Positions 6,159 to 60,389 of a DNA stretch of 64,000 nucleotides are shown here, piece by piece. The notes beneath the pieces are model-generated. The model worked only from the letters and a program-made list of their open reading frames with translations, had not been told where the DNA came from and made no database searches. The translations under genes and the position numbers were made by a program. How positions within the stretch are numbered: the stretch's first letter is position 1; each line of letters begins with the position of its first letter. The DNA comes from a virus, in the IMG/VR virus record IMGVR_UViG_3300007535_000003, positions 1 through 64,000 of that record. One strand, given 5' to 3'.

Positions 6159-6875
6159 CTATAATAGTATAAGTATTGCTATACCTTCAGCTATAGCTAC
6201 ACCATAACCTACAAGTTTCCTATTCTTTTGTTTAGTAATTTCTTCTTCATACTCTGAGGCTAAATCTCTATACATATTTTTTACTTCACTTATTTTCTCA
6301 ACTTGTAACTCAAGATTATCATTCCTTCTAGTTAAAGTAGCTATCTCATCTTCTCTCAGCCTATTTATACTTTTTAGATGCTGTATCTGATTTTGCTGAT
6401 TGTCTATAATCTCGCCTCTTTCCCTATAATCTATATGAGTATCTACTATATCTTTAGCTGTAATATCTTGAAAAGCTATATAAATAGAGCTATCACCTCC
6501 AACAAACCCTACATCTAAAAGCTCGTAATTATCGCCAGCATAATGATCTACAATGTATTGAGCTATAGAATCTATAGGCATGCTATCTACTTCAGCTTTT
6601 AAACTATCGTATTTAGCTGCTATCTCTTCTTTAGCTTCTTTCTCTAACCACCATAATTTTTTGTACCTCTCTACTTCTTCGGATAAGCTATCGCTCCTAT
6701 CAGATTCTTTAGTATAAGCTTCCTCAAGCATATTAATACTATCCTGTTGAAATTCTATACTATCCTTCAAATTTATATTCTTTTCCTGAAGAGCTTGTTT
6801 ATCTTGCCTGTCCCCATGCCACATAATAGCGACAAATATAAGTGCAGCTGCACCTACTATATTAAGAATTTTCAT
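6159..6875 (-). CDS. Membrane-anchored coiled-coil protein, possible spanin
   Basis: N-terminal TM, long coiled coil, C-terminal hydrophobic segment; directly downstream of endolysin and holin-like genes. Confidence 0.45.
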   Translation of the reverse strand: MKILNIVGAAALIFVAIMWHGDRQDKQALQEKNINLKDSIEFQQDSINMLEEAYTKESDRSDSLSEEVERYKKLWWLEKEAKEEIAAKYDSLKAEVDSMPIDSIAQYIVDHYAGDNYELLDVGFVGGDSSIYIAFQDITAKDIVDTHIDYRERGEIIDNQQNQIQHLKSINRLREDEIATLTRRNDNLELQVEKISEVKNMYRDLASEYEEEITKQKNRKLVGYGVAIAEGIAILILL

Positions 6876-8157: not shown

Positions 8158-8483
8158 TACTCTTTAGGTTTTAATGGGTTATTCTTTCCCTCTAAGATAG
8201 AATTAATCTGACCATAGATAAGTATACCGTATATCTTAGGTAGTTTATTTTGAAGCCTGACTAATTCCTCATTTGTAAGATCTATTTCTTTTTTAGCTTC
8301 ATTCAACTTCATGAATATATCAAAGTCTTTAGCTTTATTAGTCTCTTCCTTCTCTAGCTCTGTTAAAGCTATATTCTTTAGAAGTACGCCTAATTGAGGA
8401 GCTTCTTGTTTACCAGCATCATTACTGATAGTTAGCTTTTCACCATTGGCGTTATAGAGGTTCTGTGTTAAATCTATTTTCAT
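8157..8483 (-). CDS. Hypothetical protein (possible fibre assembly chaperone)
   Basis: 108-aa ORF after the fibre genes, preceded by the late-type promoter motif. Confidence 0.5.
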   Translation of the reverse strand: MKIDLTQNLYNANGEKLTISNDAGKQEAPQLGVLLKNIALTELEKEETNKAKDFDIFMKLNEAKKEIDLTNEELVRLQNKLPKIYGILIYGQINSILEGKNNPLKPKE

Positions 8484-39957: not shown

Positions 39958-40578
39958 ATGAAAAAAAACTTTAACAAAGAAATAGACATACTTAGACAGC
40001 TTCTCATATATAAGGAAAACTGTCAGTACGAAATGAGCTTAAGACAGCCGATAGGTGACGGACCTATGGCGCTTGTAAGTAGAGCCAGGTATGTTACAGG
40101 GTATATGTCTACAAGGTGGTTTGATCTATTTGACATATACAAAGAGTTACAACTAACAGTTGGTTGGAATTTAAGTGATTTATTAAGTAAAAGCATAATT
40201 GACTTAGGATGTGGAACAGGATTACTTGTAGACTTATTCAGCATAATATTTAAGAAAACTTATGGAATAGAAGCTGATTGGAATCTTTGTAAGATAGCTA
40301 CAATAATGAGGCCTCATCTAGAAATATACAATGGATATGTACAGGAAAGAGTAGACTTAATACTCAGGTTAGATCCTGACATTATTTATGCTTTTAATAT
40401 CACAGGTGAACCAAGAGAAACATTTGATGAGTTATTCAGGAAGATGCGCAAGGGACAAGTATTTGTACATCTAGGGGGCTCAACAGAGATAGAAGAGTTA
40501 ATAGATGAACACAAGTTTAATACATCTAACAAAGAGGAAGATAGGCAATCAGCCAGAGTACTGATAGCTATTAAATAA
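39958..40578 (+). CDS. Class I SAM-dependent methyltransferase
   Basis: IIDLGCGTG, YGIEAD. Confidence 0.8.
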   Translation: MKKNFNKEIDILRQLLIYKENCQYEMSLRQPIGDGPMALVSRARYVTGYMSTRWFDLFDIYKELQLTVGWNLSDLLSKSIIDLGCGTGLLVDLFSIIFKKTYGIEADWNLCKIATIMRPHLEIYNGYVQERVDLILRLDPDIIYAFNITGEPRETFDELFRKMRKGQVFVHLGGSTEIEELIDEHKFNTSNKEEDRQSARVLIAIK

Positions 40579-40596
40579 AACCACAAAATTAAAAAT

Positions 40597-40725
40597 ATGG
40601 ATTGGGAACAATCAAGAGACGAAGATAGAGAATTTGATCCTAATGATGGACAAGATATCTACGGATGCATACTAGGAGCAATTATGTGGATAGCACTAAT
40701 AGCACTAGCGATTTTCTGTAGATAA
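40597..40725 (+). CDS. 42-aa membrane peptide
   Basis: Acidic N-terminus plus TM (GCILGAIMWIALIALAIFC); motif upstream. Confidence 0.5.
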   Translation: MDWEQSRDEDREFDPNDGQDIYGCILGAIMWIALIALAIFCR

Positions 40726-40845
40726 ACCACAAAAATGAAATTGTTAAAAATATAGAGAGATCTTGGAGCCCAATCAGGGCTATCGGCGACGACACGGTGG
40801 TAACCAGCCCATACAGCAGTCGTACTTCAGGTCTCCCTAACTTAT

Positions 40846-40965
40846 GGTCCGTTCGTCTAGTGGTAGGACGCCGAGCTGTTAATACTTTATACATGCACTA
40901 GCTATGTTAGAGTATCAACCATGGTTTGCCCCACGGAAACGGAGGTTCGACTCCTCCACGGACTG
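40846..40965 (+). tRNA. tRNA-like RNA (Glu/Asp-type body) with the anticodon arm extended into a long hairpin
   Basis: Acceptor GGTCCGT/ACGGACT; D-arm GTCTAGTGGTAGGAC; T-arm GGAGG-TTCGACT-CCTCC; about 45-50 extra nt in the anticodon arm. Confidence 0.7.
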
Positions 40966-40970
40966 CTGTT

Positions 40971-41163
40971 AGCCATATAGCTCAAAAGTGTTACACTCAA
41001 GTTCCTAGGAATCGGCTGTAACCCCCAAGGATATGCAGAGGAGAATGGAACTTATTTGGACTTAAAATCCAATCCATTCTAGGCCACCTCACGCAGAGTC
41101 CGAGTAGCGGAAGAGCCCCTAATAAATTATAGGGAGATCTGGGTTCGAGTCCCAGTATGGCTA
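40971..41163 (+). tRNA. tRNA-like RNA with ~120-nt structured insertion in the D-loop
   Basis: Acceptor AGCCATA/TATGGCT; D-stem GCTC/GAGC; CCCTA/TAGGG arm with an 8-nt loop; T-arm CTGGG-TTCGAGT-CCCAG. Confidence 0.7.
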
Positions 41164-41198
41164 CTATTTTTATTTACAAACCACAAAAATTAAATATT

Positions 41199-41366
41199 AT
41201 GTCAGCATTAATTGCATTCCTTGTAACAATGGCATTCCTAAGTTTAATGGGCTATGCCTTATTACCTTACGGGACTAAGGAGGAAGCCTCAACGAGAAAA
41301 GTAGTAGGTATTGTAGCAATTTTAGCTACAGTAGTAATACTAATATTAACTTTAATAATATCCTAA
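41199..41366 (+). CDS. Small two-TM membrane protein
   Basis: Likely start ATG 41199 after the motif. Confidence 0.55.
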   Translation: MSALIAFLVTMAFLSLMGYALLPYGTKEEASTRKVVGIVAILATVVILILTLIIS

Positions 41367-41369
41367 AGT

Positions 41370-41627
41370 ATGGAAAAACGTTATGCCCTTAACAGGGGAG
41401 ACATCTTAGTCTTACTGTTAAATGGGAAGAAAAAGACATTTAGGGTCTTATCCTCAAAAGATAGCATGGGAAAAGACGCCGACAGTAGTAATAAGAAAGA
41501 GCCTTTGGATCTCAATATAAGTAGCGAGCTATTCAAAGAGATCGAAAAGAAACTGCCTGAAGTATTTTTTAAGAAAATCCGATGGAAATCTAACTCAGTA
41601 AGATTATTAAGCGTTAAAAGGAGCTAA
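41370..41627 (+). CDS. Hypothetical protein
   Basis: ORF in operon. Confidence 0.55.
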   Translation: MEKRYALNRGDILVLLLNGKKKTFRVLSSKDSMGKDADSSNKKEPLDLNISSELFKEIEKKLPEVFFKKIRWKSNSVRLLSVKRS

Positions 41628-41630
41628 GAC

Positions 41631-42074
41631 ATGTGGAAATCTAACTCAAAGCAAAGCAAAGACAAAATAAGTAAGGGCAGTTTAGTAATTATTGACATGC
41701 CCGACTTTATTGGAGAATATGTACCTTCAATAAGTAAGGTAGCGTGTAGCTACAAAGAAAAGATGCTACATTTCTCTAATGTTAGCAATGCTTTTGGTAG
41801 CTTATTTGGTGAAGAACACCATTTAATAGAAGTACCAAGAGCAGTCATACTCTATAACAAGACACATTTTCTTAAGAGTGTATTAGAGCTATCTGAAGCA
41901 TATAAAGAAGATAGCTTAGATTCTTTATTCTTTTACGGTCGTAAAATAGTACTACCAGTCCATGAGGGATACTTAATGCCGGTAAGTAAAATAAAGGATC
42001 CACACAAAAGAGGACTATGTTATAGAGAATGGGAAATGTTAAAGACTAAGGGATATAGTAACCTTATAACCTAA
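41631..42074 (+). CDS. Hypothetical protein
   Basis: ORF in operon. Confidence 0.55.
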   Translation: MWKSNSKQSKDKISKGSLVIIDMPDFIGEYVPSISKVACSYKEKMLHFSNVSNAFGSLFGEEHHLIEVPRAVILYNKTHFLKSVLELSEAYKEDSLDSLFFYGRKIVLPVHEGYLMPVSKIKDPHKRGLCYREWEMLKTKGYSNLIT

Positions 42075-42135
42075 CTTAACTAACAAACGATTTACTTACG
42101 CTGCTAGCTAGGGCTTTAGCGGACTCGGGTTCGAT

Positions 42136-42756
42136 CAAAAGGTCGAAGTTAAACTGGGTGAATTCAGGGAAACCTAAGTCACAATGATAAGGCAACCCTG
42201 AGCCAAGCCCTTAAGAGGGAAGGTGCAGAGACTACCTGAATACAGGCTAGAGCGCCCAGCACTTAAAAGTGAAGAGATAGTCCGATACTCCTGAGAAATT
42301 AGGAGAAGAAGCGAGATGTAAATTCTTGACGTTTTGATAAGGTTTCTTTTGTATATTTACCATTACGAGGTGTTATACTCTTCAATTCGTTAAGTATCAT
42401 ATCTATACGTCTACGCTTCTTGGGATGTCTGGAATTTATGTAAGATAGTACGTTTATACATTTAGGTAAATAAGTATACCTCAGCTCATAATTAGTAAAA
42501 TCACCTGATTTTTTAGTACAAATGAATCCATTATGACCTGTTTCAAGTTTAATAAATTTTTCTATTTCCACAAGTAGGTCATATTCGTTATTACTAAAAG
42601 AAATAACAGGTGATCTTTCGCAATTCTTATGTAAACGTAAAAATGTTATCGTGCCGTCAGCATCAAAGAAACCTGTAATATATTCCCAACCCATATTTTT
42701 ATTGAATATACGGACGCAGGTTTGAAATGTTACTGTTCCAGATGTTTTAACTATTG
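42136..42756 (+). mobile_element. Group I intron in the tmRNA T-loop
   Basis: P1 TTCGAT|C-AAAA-GGTCGAA with U:G at the splice site; P3 CTGGGTG/CGCCCAG; P4 TTCAGGG/CCCTGAG; GCAGAGACT and AGATAGTC (P7); P9 CTCCT/AGGAG; terminal G at 42756. Confidence 0.9.
42299..42694 (-). CDS. Single-motif LAGLIDADG homing endonuclease, antisense inside the intron
   Basis: WEYITGFFDADGTI; TPRNGKYT; lies in the intron 3' (P9) region. Confidence 0.88.
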   Translation of the reverse strand: MGWEYITGFFDADGTITFLRLHKNCERSPVISFSNNEYDLLVEIEKFIKLETGHNGFICTKKSGDFTNYELRYTYLPKCINVLSYINSRHPKKRRRIDMILNELKSITPRNGKYTKETLSKRQEFTSRFFS

Positions 42757-45390: not shown

Positions 45391-46690
45391 CATAATATTT
45401 TTTGTGGTTTGAGTCGATTTAGGTGCGAGCCTATTTCGGCTTCAATTTTTGTAGCAGTTCTTGAGAGAACCTTCACCCTACCGCCTTTGGATTCGGCAAT
45501 GTTGGGAATACCAAGGACAATGCCTACTACCTATTAGCTACTCAATATCTACAAAACTACTCTCCTTATGAAGTATCCTAGGAAGATGGGTTCCAATTAT
45601 TGATTTAAGCGCACTCTGAGGAACTGGCAGACCCGATGGATACATTAAGGTAAATAGGTCTAACGCAACCCATGGTCAAATCCGTACTCTTAAGTGTGTG
45701 GGTATTACCCTTAAGAGCTTATGCATGCTCGCACTTCCCTTTACGAAAAGGTTGAACTAAGAAGTAACTGAATACGGGGCTGTATATACTGTATACAGTG
45801 GGGCTGGAAACACCAGAAGACTACGATGATGCTACCTAGTAAATAGGCCAAGTGAACACTTAACTTTGAATTAAGTTAGTAACGGGGGGTCCAAATTCCT
45901 TAGAGTCGTTGTATAGACCTTGAGTACCGAGTACAGAGTAGATAATTTATCCCCCAGTAAAGTGGTGTAGTTCAAGCCGCAGTAGCGAAATATGAACTGT
46001 CGTCTGTGATTTCGGCTGGGGTAAGAGGAGGAGGGATGGATACGTGTGCTTCACCGTTTGTATGGTAAGAAGCTACATGTTATACGCCCTAGCCAAGATC
46101 TGAAGCATGAATCGTCAAGTTGGGGCTTAGGAATAAGTTTGATAAATAGCCTGCGATAGGTCGCAATCCCTATCAGTTTCAACCATCGAGTAATGTGGAG
46201 GATACATACATCAATGAGGCGGTAATGCCGCCCAGTATCATGGTAGTGCGCTTTATAACTGATGCAGCCATTTCCAGTTATATTTGCTTGGAGCTACTTA
46301 TGATGCGATACTCTGTAGGACAGAGGGTCTTTAAACTTAGCAGGTAACCGTAAGTGTGGAGAACAAAGTTAAGTCCCTAGAGTAGAACAGACCTCTAACA
46401 GTTCTACAAAATTCAAATAGTAAACAAGGGTTTACAACGGAGCCGTTAGGCTGTTGTATAATATATACCCAAATAAATGTCAGTGTATTTCTTGCCTAAC
46501 CACAGCAAGAGACTGACTAATAGTGACTATAAGAGTATTAAGCTAAGGAGGTTGTGAGTGGATGTGGTTCATGAGGTACCAAGTGCATTTTAAAAGCTTG
46601 GGTGGATGACTTCATTGAATCATAGCTTAATATTAAGTAAGGAAATAGGACTGGGGCTTAAGAAAGTCCCAGCTCCCCAGTCCTTTTAAA
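45391..46690 (+). ncRNA. Large structured non-coding region (one or more ncRNAs)
   Basis: 1.3 kb without a 60-aa ORF in any frame; GC-richer; many hairpins, GNRA loops and long-range complementarities; ends in a terminator at 46647-46687. Confidence 0.65.
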
Positions 46691-46700
46691 CTATTAAAAA

Positions 46701-47015
46701 ATGAAGGTAAAAAAGTATAAATATCTAATACCTATAATAAGCATAAAAGCTGAAGGTACCTTAGTACATTTGATACAGCGCAATATTCTGTACAAAGCTA
46801 AAAAAGTACTAGGGATCAAAATACCAATAGAAAAGATCTTTCAAAAAGACAGGGGGATCTCAGCTTGGAAAGAGACAGCGGGTCATAAGCAGACTAAATG
46901 GAGAATAGTCTACATAAAAGATGAAGATAATAACATCAGATTAGGGCCCGTTATTCAAGACAAGAAACTTTTAAAGTTTTTAAACAAGATTACTAACCAA
47001 AATTATGCAAAATGA
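46701..47015 (+). CDS. Hypothetical basic protein
   Basis: 104-aa ORF. Confidence 0.55.
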   Translation: MKVKKYKYLIPIISIKAEGTLVHLIQRNILYKAKKVLGIKIPIEKIFQKDRGISAWKETAGHKQTKWRIVYIKDEDNNIRLGPVIQDKKLLKFLNKITNQNYAK

Positions 47016-60305: not shown

Positions 60306-60375
60306 GCCGGGTAGCTCAACGGTAGAGCCTAGGATTTTACCCTAGAGAAGCGAGGTTCGAGTCCTTGCCCCGGCA
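60306..60375 (+). tRNA. Atypical tRNA, anticodon TTT (Lys-like)
   Basis: GCCGGG/CCCGGC, GCTCAACGGTAGAGC, CTAGG-ATTTTAC-CCTAG, GCGAGG-TTCGAGT-CCTTGC. Confidence 0.65.
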
Positions 60376-60389
60376 CTAAATTAATAAGC

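Follow-up and report, generated by a model that had tools for sequence, protein, structure and literature searches.

What purpose, if any, is served by a gene that has the body of a transfer RNA (tRNA) and an anticodon loop of its own unfit for decoding, and that carries in its D-loop a perfect copy of the anticodon arm of another tRNA? The question is raised by an element at 40971-41163 (+ strand) of a window of 64,000 nucleotides, the window being the whole stretch of DNA analysed, bases 1-64000 of the 97,237-bp IMG/VR record IMGVR_UViG_3300007535_000003, which is rated 94% complete. The record belongs to a soil phage which we take to be crAss-like. Its major head and portal proteins match phrog_11589 (E = 1e-127) and phrog_6547 (E = 1e-145); the known host phylum of crAss-like phages is Bacteroidota. 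The new feature of the element is that an exact host anticodon arm, that of tRNA-Leu(UAA), is displayed at the tip of an arm built into the D-loop. The answer which we favour, though only tentatively, is that the element specifies a non-decoding tRNA mimic, which may act as bait for some protein that recognises the tRNA-Leu(UAA) anticodon arm, a defence nuclease being the most plausible candidate. Its parts, in window coordinates, are as follows.

40971-40987, + strand: 5' part of the tRNA body, with acceptor AGCCAUA (40971-77), U8 and A9, D-stem GCUC (40980-83) and D-loop nucleotides A14-A17 (Rfam alignment; ARAGORN after insert removal)
40988-41108, + strand: 121-nt D-loop insert, in which a linker joins the weak hairpin 1 (40990-41022) to the long hairpin (Rfam alignment, folding)
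41029-41103, + strand: long imperfect hairpin with the helices GGAU/GUCC, UGC/GCA and GAGG/CCUC, an 8-bp helix AGAAUGGA/UCCAUUCU (41042-49 / 41073-80), a 6-nt 5' bulge ACUUAU (41050-55) and the apical arm (folding)
41056-41072, + strand: apical 17-nt arm UUGGA-CUUAAAA-UCCAA (5-bp stem, 7-nt loop), an exact tRNA-Leu(UAA) anticodon arm of Bacteroidota type (genome matches, covariance model)
41109-41116, + strand: 3' part of the D-loop (G18 G19 A20 A21) followed by the 3' strand of the D-stem, GAGC (41113-16) (Rfam alignment; ARAGORN after insert removal)
41117-41134, + strand: native anticodon arm, aberrant: stem CCCUA/UAGGG closing the 8-nt loop AUAAAUUA, nucleotide 26 being absent, or alternatively with a 7-nt loop (direct reading, Rfam, ARAGORN)
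41135-41163, + strand: variable loop AGAU, T-arm CUGGG-UUCGAGU-CCCAG (41139-55), 3' strand of the acceptor UAUGGCU (41156-62) and discriminator A (41163) (direct reading, Rfam, ARAGORN)

The 17-mer of the apical arm was found in at least 120 species genomes, mostly of Bacteroidota and including Chitinophagaceae and metagenome-assembled genomes of Chitinophagales, and at 117 of the 125 listed occurrences ARAGORN called a tRNA-Leu(UAA) in which the 17-mer forms the anticodon arm. An earlier reading of this locus, made from the letters only (the sequence-only reading), had described the apex of the insert as a textbook Leu(UAA) anticodon arm, and this description was fully borne out, 17 of 17 nucleotides being identical to real tRNA-Leu(UAA) arms. 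The generic shape of an anticodon arm (5-bp stem, 7-nt loop, Y32, U33, R37) is common, 49 such hairpins being counted in the + strand of the phage genome and 45 in the - strand. As judged by sequence comparison, it is the exact identity of the apical arm, not its shape, that exceeds chance. A reference set of 86 distinct host-type anticodon arms was assembled from the 17-mer loci and two Chitinophagales genomes. Across the 97-kb phage the apical arm was the only match to this set with at most one mismatch, about 0.001 exact matches being expected, and four related phage genomes contained no match to host-type arms within one mismatch. The arms of the seemingly functional tRNA-Lys and tRNA-Asn of the phage itself differ from host arms at three positions or more.

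The likeness to tRNA-Leu(UAA) is restricted to this arm. A covariance model built from 50 tRNA-Leu(UAA) genes (model R1) matched the window only at model positions 28-44, which are the anticodon arm, with 15.4 bits; a class II tRNA-Leu(UAA) was not matched as a whole molecule, the anticodon arm alone being aligned. When compared with shuffled sequences, the flanks of the arm showed no likeness to tRNA-Leu (p = 0.24-0.78). These flanks pair with each other, and nothing else of tRNA-Leu(UAA) is present. Since the boundaries of the arm are exact and lie inside a purpose-like helix, selection on the arm is suggested rather than the capture of a gene fragment. A decayed whole tRNA-Leu gene was also considered as the origin of the insert and was rejected, as the remnants of a D-arm, variable arm and acceptor that could be picked out by eye were not significant against shuffles and the R1 match stops at the arm.

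The long hairpin that carries the arm consists of four helical segments, an internal loop and the 6-nt bulge. It is far more stable than shuffled sequences (z = -3.88), none of 200 shuffles reaching its stability, and z = -4.10 was obtained for the apical 40 nt. The minimum free energy structure is the same as the centroid structure and accounts for 69% of the ensemble. For the insert as a whole a folding z of -1.56 was obtained, and for hairpin 1 a value of -0.98, which is not significant. A D-loop insert of about 120 nt with a long hairpin had been predicted in the sequence-only reading, and both its size and its fold were confirmed here. It is located between A17 and G18, in the length-variable (alpha) part of the D-loop; this part varies naturally in length, and an extra helix at the elbow may be tolerated. 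A second anticodon-like arm proposed by the same reading, the Tyr-like GG-CU-GUA-AC-CC at 41014-24, did not survive inspection: its stem has 2 bp only and lies inside the stem of the weak hairpin 1, and it matched no host tRNA-Tyr arm in the collected arm set. A search for internal repeats or antisense targets in the phage genome gave chance 10-12-mers only. Pairing of the apical loop with the native anticodon loop, which amounts to at most 3 bp by eye, was likewise taken as chance.

Is the body that holds this insert still that of a tRNA? The Rfam tRNA model (RF00005) aligned over its full length with 40971-41163 (+), scoring 30.4 bits against a gathering cut-off of 29 bits, and assigned 126 nt to the D-loop. 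All 16 of the 16 pairs of the acceptor (7/7), D (4/4) and T (5/5) stems are Watson-Crick, in agreement with the intact acceptor, D-stem and T-arm noticed earlier. The nucleotides of the tertiary contacts are kept as well (U8, A14, G18G19 at 41109-10, A21, G53-C61 and the UUCGA T-loop). The T-loop is consensus, and the CCA end is not encoded. With 193 nt, of which 121-126 nt are in the D-loop, the whole element exceeds the canonical tRNA length of 70-95 nt. Folding alone leaves the register of the D-stem unsettled, the minimum free energy fold pairing GCUC with GAGU at 41102-05 instead.

The native anticodon arm does not have the canonical form of a 5-bp stem and a 7-nt loop with U33 and a purine at position 37. 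It can be read as a 5-bp stem closing the non-canonical 8-nt loop that had been reported for this position. If the loop is forced to 7 nt, position 33 becomes A and position 37 becomes U, and the stem then contains two non-Watson-Crick pairs (U.G and A.A). The anatomy thus supports the previous statement that this is not a decoding tRNA, the native loop either having 8 nt or lacking U33 and a purine at 37, and the Leu arm, about 24 bp out on the D-loop branch, could not be used by the ribosome. The selective loss in the anticodon loop argues against uniform decay, because three stems are spared. ARAGORN was run with and without the insert, a check suggested in the sequence-only reading. With default settings and the insert present, neither the element nor an interrupted Asn-type gene next to it was called. 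After removal of 40988-41107 in silico a tRNA of 74 nt was called, still with an aberrant anticodon arm. Since default ARAGORN saw neither interrupted gene, standard finders miss genes of this kind, and phage tRNA-like repertoires may be under-counted. With regard to the isotype from which the body was derived, no clear parent was found, the best scores (Thr 19, phage Lys 17) being near background. On one metagenome contig (L416, ~8275-8360, +) an ordinary class II tRNA-Leu(UAA), which follows a tRNA-Gln, has the acceptor GGCCAUA/UAUGGCU and discriminator A. This acceptor is nearly the same as that of the body described here, which may be coincidence, the search pattern having fixed the 3' strand.

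The DNA of 40971-41163 is not an assembly artefact, because another soil run yielded a contig of 749 nt that spans 40480-41228 with zero differences. UUA is the main Leu codon of the phage (41% of Leu codons, 32 per 1000), and this A/T-rich phage is therefore dependent on tRNA-Leu(UAA). Together with AAA (50 per 1000) and AAU (49 per 1000), UUA is among the commonest A/U-rich codons of the phage, and its three tRNA-type genes, i.e. a Lys UUU gene at 60306-60376, the Asn GUU type gene and the element with the Leu UAA arm, correspond to the codons AAA, AAU and UUA.

How could such an RNA serve the phage? In the mechanism proposed here the transcribed RNA would be tRNA-shaped, with an L-shaped fold, and its complete class-I cloverleaf would allow RNase P, RNase Z and the CCA-adding enzyme to mature and stabilise it. 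With its own anticodon loop disabled the scaffold would be unusable for translation. The 121-nt module between A17 and G18 might be tolerated without breaking the contacts of G18/G19 with the T-loop, and the long arm would hold out a host-type tRNA-Leu(UAA) anticodon arm as bait. An anticodon-arm nuclease belonging to an anti-phage system of the host could be captured in this way, so that the real tRNA-Leu(UAA) would be spared. In a weaker variant, another arm-binding enzyme, for example a modification enzyme, would be titrated. The most specific form of the proposal, a competitive bait neutralising a host defence nuclease aimed at tRNA-Leu(UAA), we regard as possible but unlikely. An exact host arm combined with heavy use of UUA would be compatible with an anticodon-nuclease decoy, one of the roles offered in the sequence-only reading, and the gene is co-oriented with the array of early cassettes. 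Bacterial Schlafens are defence nucleases cutting anticodon arms (bioRxiv 10.1101/2025.07.24.666596), and AriB of PARIS is reported to be an anti-phage nuclease that cuts the anticodon arm (PMC12409363). Replacement tRNAs of phages differ from the host arms and so evade anticodon nucleases (PMC10264068). By analogy, the divergence of the Lys and Asn arms of this phage suggests evading replacement tRNAs, and a bait, by contrast, would have to match the host.

Several points weigh against such a bait. It might be starved of its processing, as the insertion at the elbow might impair recognition by RNase P, and the interrupted Asn-type neighbour could equally mean that an insertion-hit cluster is decaying. 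We know of no nuclease specific for bacterial tRNA-Leu(UAA). The element is a singleton: homologues were detected neither in 14 related phage genomes by BLASTN nor among the INPHARED phages, exact and degenerate DNA patterns revealed no relative in IMG/VR, and no homologue was found among JGI metagenome contigs. The stretch is present in four soil metagenome DNA runs, where the contigs are identical to the window and microdiversity is uninformative, and no RNA run was among the sequencing runs that hold it. A second example of such a display was not obtained either, a tRNA-Trp-type loop ([CU]UCCA[AG]N) with a 5-bp stem being absent from 45400-46750 (+ strand, one pattern).

If not a bait, the element could be an inert chimera, that is, a decaying phage tRNA gene hit by an insertion or recombination which brought in a short piece of tRNA-Leu(UAA), and which is functionless and has not been purged. 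The lack of conserved relatives and the defective anticodon loop would be expected of such a gene. The adjacent Asn-type gene and the gene of the transfer-messenger RNA (tmRNA) are also interrupted, so that the cluster appears prone to insertions, and the early region is hypervariable, its 32-48 kb part giving no tblastx match (E <= 1e-8) in four relatives that share the structural and replication modules. However, the damage is confined to the anticodon loop, whereas 16/16 stem pairs and the nucleotides of the tertiary contacts are intact. The identity with tRNA-Leu stops exactly at the ends of the arm, with flanks devoid of any tRNA-Leu signal, and a captured fragment is not expected to coincide with a structural unit at the tip of a very stable helix (z = -3.9). 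Dead DNA, moreover, is usually shed fast by phage genomes, and on balance we find the inert chimera rather doubtful. Another way to account for the locus is a cis-acting processing or stability module, in which tRNA-shaped units punctuate a polycistronic early transcript, offering entry points for RNase P and RNase Z or protective ends, and in which the Leu arm is incidental. The body is what RNase P and RNase Z need, and the pair formed with the Asn-type gene lies between two copies of an early-gene leader motif (described below) in a same-strand gene array, no sigma-70-like promoter having been found directly upstream of the pair. Such a module seems improbable to us, as it leaves unexplained the 17/17 copy of a host anticodon arm and the elaborate arm of about 73 nt, where plain tRNAs or hairpins would suffice.

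The sequence-only reading had also offered a precursor needing unusual processing. The insert or inserts would be removed by some route to give a decoder, which would be either a tRNA formed by the outer body or a tRNA-Leu(UAA) reading codons with the apical arm. The fit of the three tRNA-type genes to the commonest codons AAA, AAU and UUA is what codon-compensating phage tRNAs show, and the insert of the Asn-type neighbour is at the classical 37/38 region. There is also an alternative Rfam alignment, of 41029-41163, in which the Leu arm is taken as the anticodon arm, but with 24.9 bits it falls short of the cut-off of 29, and it requires a poor acceptor with three G.U pairs and a mismatch as well as a variable region of 64 nt. 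The 3' strand of the D-stem comes after the Leu arm, so that simple excision cannot give a canonical tRNA-Leu, and the product spliced in silico keeps the defective anticodon loop with A33 and U37, no functional tRNA being obtained by excision. Nor were signatures of splicing present. A group I core (RF00028) or other Rfam ribozyme was not found in 40971-41163 at E <= 10, the 121 nt being too short for a group I intron, and no bulge-helix-bulge (3-4-3) could be drawn by eye at either border of the insert. The proteins of the phage matched neither the tRNA splicing endonuclease (PF01974, for which the control matched archaea only) nor RtcB nor the Rnl2-type RNA_ligase profile. The T4 Rnl1-type profile had no match in the phage either, but this blank is weak since the control matched nothing. 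A precursor of a working tRNA is thus left with a slim chance. Far less probable still is some other sensor site, either a decoy for T-box leaders or an attP-like integration core in which the anticodon arm of tRNA-Leu is copied. The symmetric anticodon arm of tRNA genes frequently serves tyrosine integrases as the crossover core, and T-boxes read anticodons. Yet no tyrosine integrase (PF00589) or serine recombinase (PF00239) was matched in the 94%-complete phage record, and the tRNA-Leu identity, which spans 17-19 nt only, would not restore the 3' half of the tRNA. An attP site was rejected for want of an integrase and because the identity does not run to the 3' end of the tRNA. T-boxes were found neither in five Bacteroidota genomes nor in the B. 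thetaiotaomicron control, which makes the T-box-like sensors suggested earlier an unlikely target. In a comparison of 40500-42500 with Rfam 15 that covered YrlA and other catalogued tRNA-like non-coding RNAs, only RF00005 was significant for the element at E <= 10.

The favoured reading, a non-decoding bait, can be compared with several known systems. The stable RNAs C and D of phage T4 (rnaC/rnaD, the species 1/2 RNAs), annotated as having no known function, are, like the element, phage-encoded, located beside tRNA genes and non-decoding, with a tRNA-like acceptor and T-arm, and by these features the element resembles the rnaC/rnaD type. TRNA-type models picked up the T-arm and acceptor of rnaC weakly (17.5 bits). 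Unlike the element, rnaC is without a full cloverleaf and without a known copy of a host anticodon arm, and there is no sequence relation between the two. Anti-defence phage tRNAs, namely T5 tRNA-Lys against PARIS/AriB and mycobacteriophage tRNAs bearing mutations in the anticodon loop, share with our proposal the theme of a conflict over host anticodon arms (PMC10264068, PMC12409363). The phage analysed here also resembles the phages with such tRNAs in carrying Lys(UUU)- and Asn(GUU)-type genes. Anti-defence tRNAs, however, are working decoders with diverged arms that replace a cleaved tRNA, whereas the arm described here is an exact host copy on a non-decoding scaffold.

Mimics of anticodon arms are reportedly present in the thrS operator of E. 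coli, which is bound by ThrRS, and in a tRNA-like element of HIV-1, which is bound by LysRS. They are, like the arm in question, hairpin copies of a tRNA anticodon arm, and theirs captures the recognising protein. They differ in lying in an mRNA or a genomic RNA and not in a tRNA body, and in having an aminoacyl-tRNA synthetase as partner; bacterial leucyl-tRNA synthetase (LeuRS) generally does not read the anticodon. Phage PhiTE is said to make pseudo-ToxI, a mimic of an RNA antitoxin that neutralises the abortive-infection nuclease ToxN. In that system, too, a phage-encoded copy of a host RNA acts against a defence endoribonuclease, but pseudo-ToxI is a repeat RNA and its function was shown experimentally. 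The 'tRNA scaffold' reportedly introduced by Ponchon and Dardel is an engineered tRNA body for the expression of an RNA cargo, and again the tRNA body stabilises or processes the inserted RNA. This scaffold is artificial, and its cargo replaces the anticodon arm instead of forming a branch of the D-loop.

The anticodon arms of tRNAs are a main battlefield on which phages and bacteria meet (PrrC, PARIS, retron-associated nucleases, bacterial Schlafens, Cas13), and the phage answers described so far are, to our knowledge, replacement tRNAs and repair enzymes. If the bait is real, a third type of phage answer would be added to these, the display of an arm on a stable, untranslatable tRNA body, an RNA-only anti-defence bait strategy for which no description was found in the literature searched. 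Its existence would further hint that soil Bacteroidota have a so far unrecognised defence directed against tRNA-Leu(UAA). A phage rich in A/T, with so large a share of UUA among its Leu codons, would suffer particularly from a nuclease of this specificity. If the element is only a decaying chimera, the consequences are small.

The surroundings of the element contain two further features to which the argument refers.

40724-40734, + strand: AAACCACAAAA, a leader motif of early genes, located upstream of the two tRNA-type genes (motif count against shuffles)
40846-40965, + strand: tRNA-Asn(GUU)-type gene whose anticodon stem contains an A.A mismatch and whose anticodon loop is interrupted at its 3' edge by an insert of 49-51 nt (Rfam, 44.6 bits; ARAGORN with introns allowed)

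The leader motif occurs in 11 copies where 2.4 are expected, and none of 100 shuffles reached 11. Its next copy, at 41178-41188, precedes the following open reading frame. Being flanked by the copies at 40724 and 41178, the two RNA genes share one cassette of the + strand early array. They are arranged in tandem, the Asn(GUU)-type gene ending 5 nt upstream of the element. This gene has G73 and keeps the full loop CUGUUAA; its insert is no stabler than shuffles (z = -0.6) and holds the palindrome AACCATGGTT. Downstream of the motif copy at 40724 come a mini open reading frame of 6 codons (MKLLKI) and then, still ahead of the tRNA pair, a G+C-rich stretch of 108 nt. This stretch, within 40724-40845 (+), folds better than shuffles (z = -2.05), and in it GGGCU can pair with AGCCC on either side. 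About 0.9 kb downstream of the element there is a group I intron in the tmRNA gene (42011-42305, 97 bits, RF00028), with an antisense LAGLIDADG gene. The neighbouring open reading frames of 206 aa (39958-40578) and 352 aa had no homologues in IMG/VR, in the relatives or among 5.8 billion proteins. The 206-aa product, which is methyltransferase-like, was considered as a tRNA enzyme and was rejected, the similarity being weak and generic for class I methyltransferases only.

The searches also returned tRNA-like genes of other kinds. Through the head protein 136 relatives of the phage were found, with identities of 63-86%. Nine pattern hits in the JGI contigs were without a matching 5' acceptor strand, except for one ordinary tRNA-Leu(UAA) and one tRNA-like gene with an insert in the anticodon loop, the kinship of which is doubtful. 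When IMG/VR was scanned for T-loops preceded by the Leu arm at a distance of 57-87 nt, the matches listed were ordinary tRNA-Leu genes with other tRNAs or fragments behind them, and no display in a D-loop was among them. In a tRNA-like gene on one contig (L417) a hairpin is inserted into the anticodon loop, and the 5' end resembles that of the element (AGCAAUAUAGCUCA). On another contig (L412, ~6160-6445, +) the T-arms and acceptor ends of two adjacent tRNA-like elements are good, but a canonical anticodon arm is absent and ARAGORN called no tRNA there. A further tRNA-like gene, at a different genomic place, is carried by two related crAss-like phages (G003:39613-39747, the same as L092 1501-1635 (-), and G004:22219-22332, the same as L091 1501-1614 (-)). 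It has a His-like extra G-1:C73 pair, and the 5' 18 nt and about 30 nt at the 3' end are identical between both phages. The inserts in its anticodon region are wholly different, and in the G003 gene the D-loop holds a small additional hairpin. IMG/VR yielded no other members of this kind, and neither copy contains a host anticodon arm. Finally, a related phage (G001:C1:10856-10931) encodes a class I-shaped tRNA of 76 nt with a short variable loop (Rfam, 36.6 bits); such a body is unusual for its Leu anticodon, CAA.

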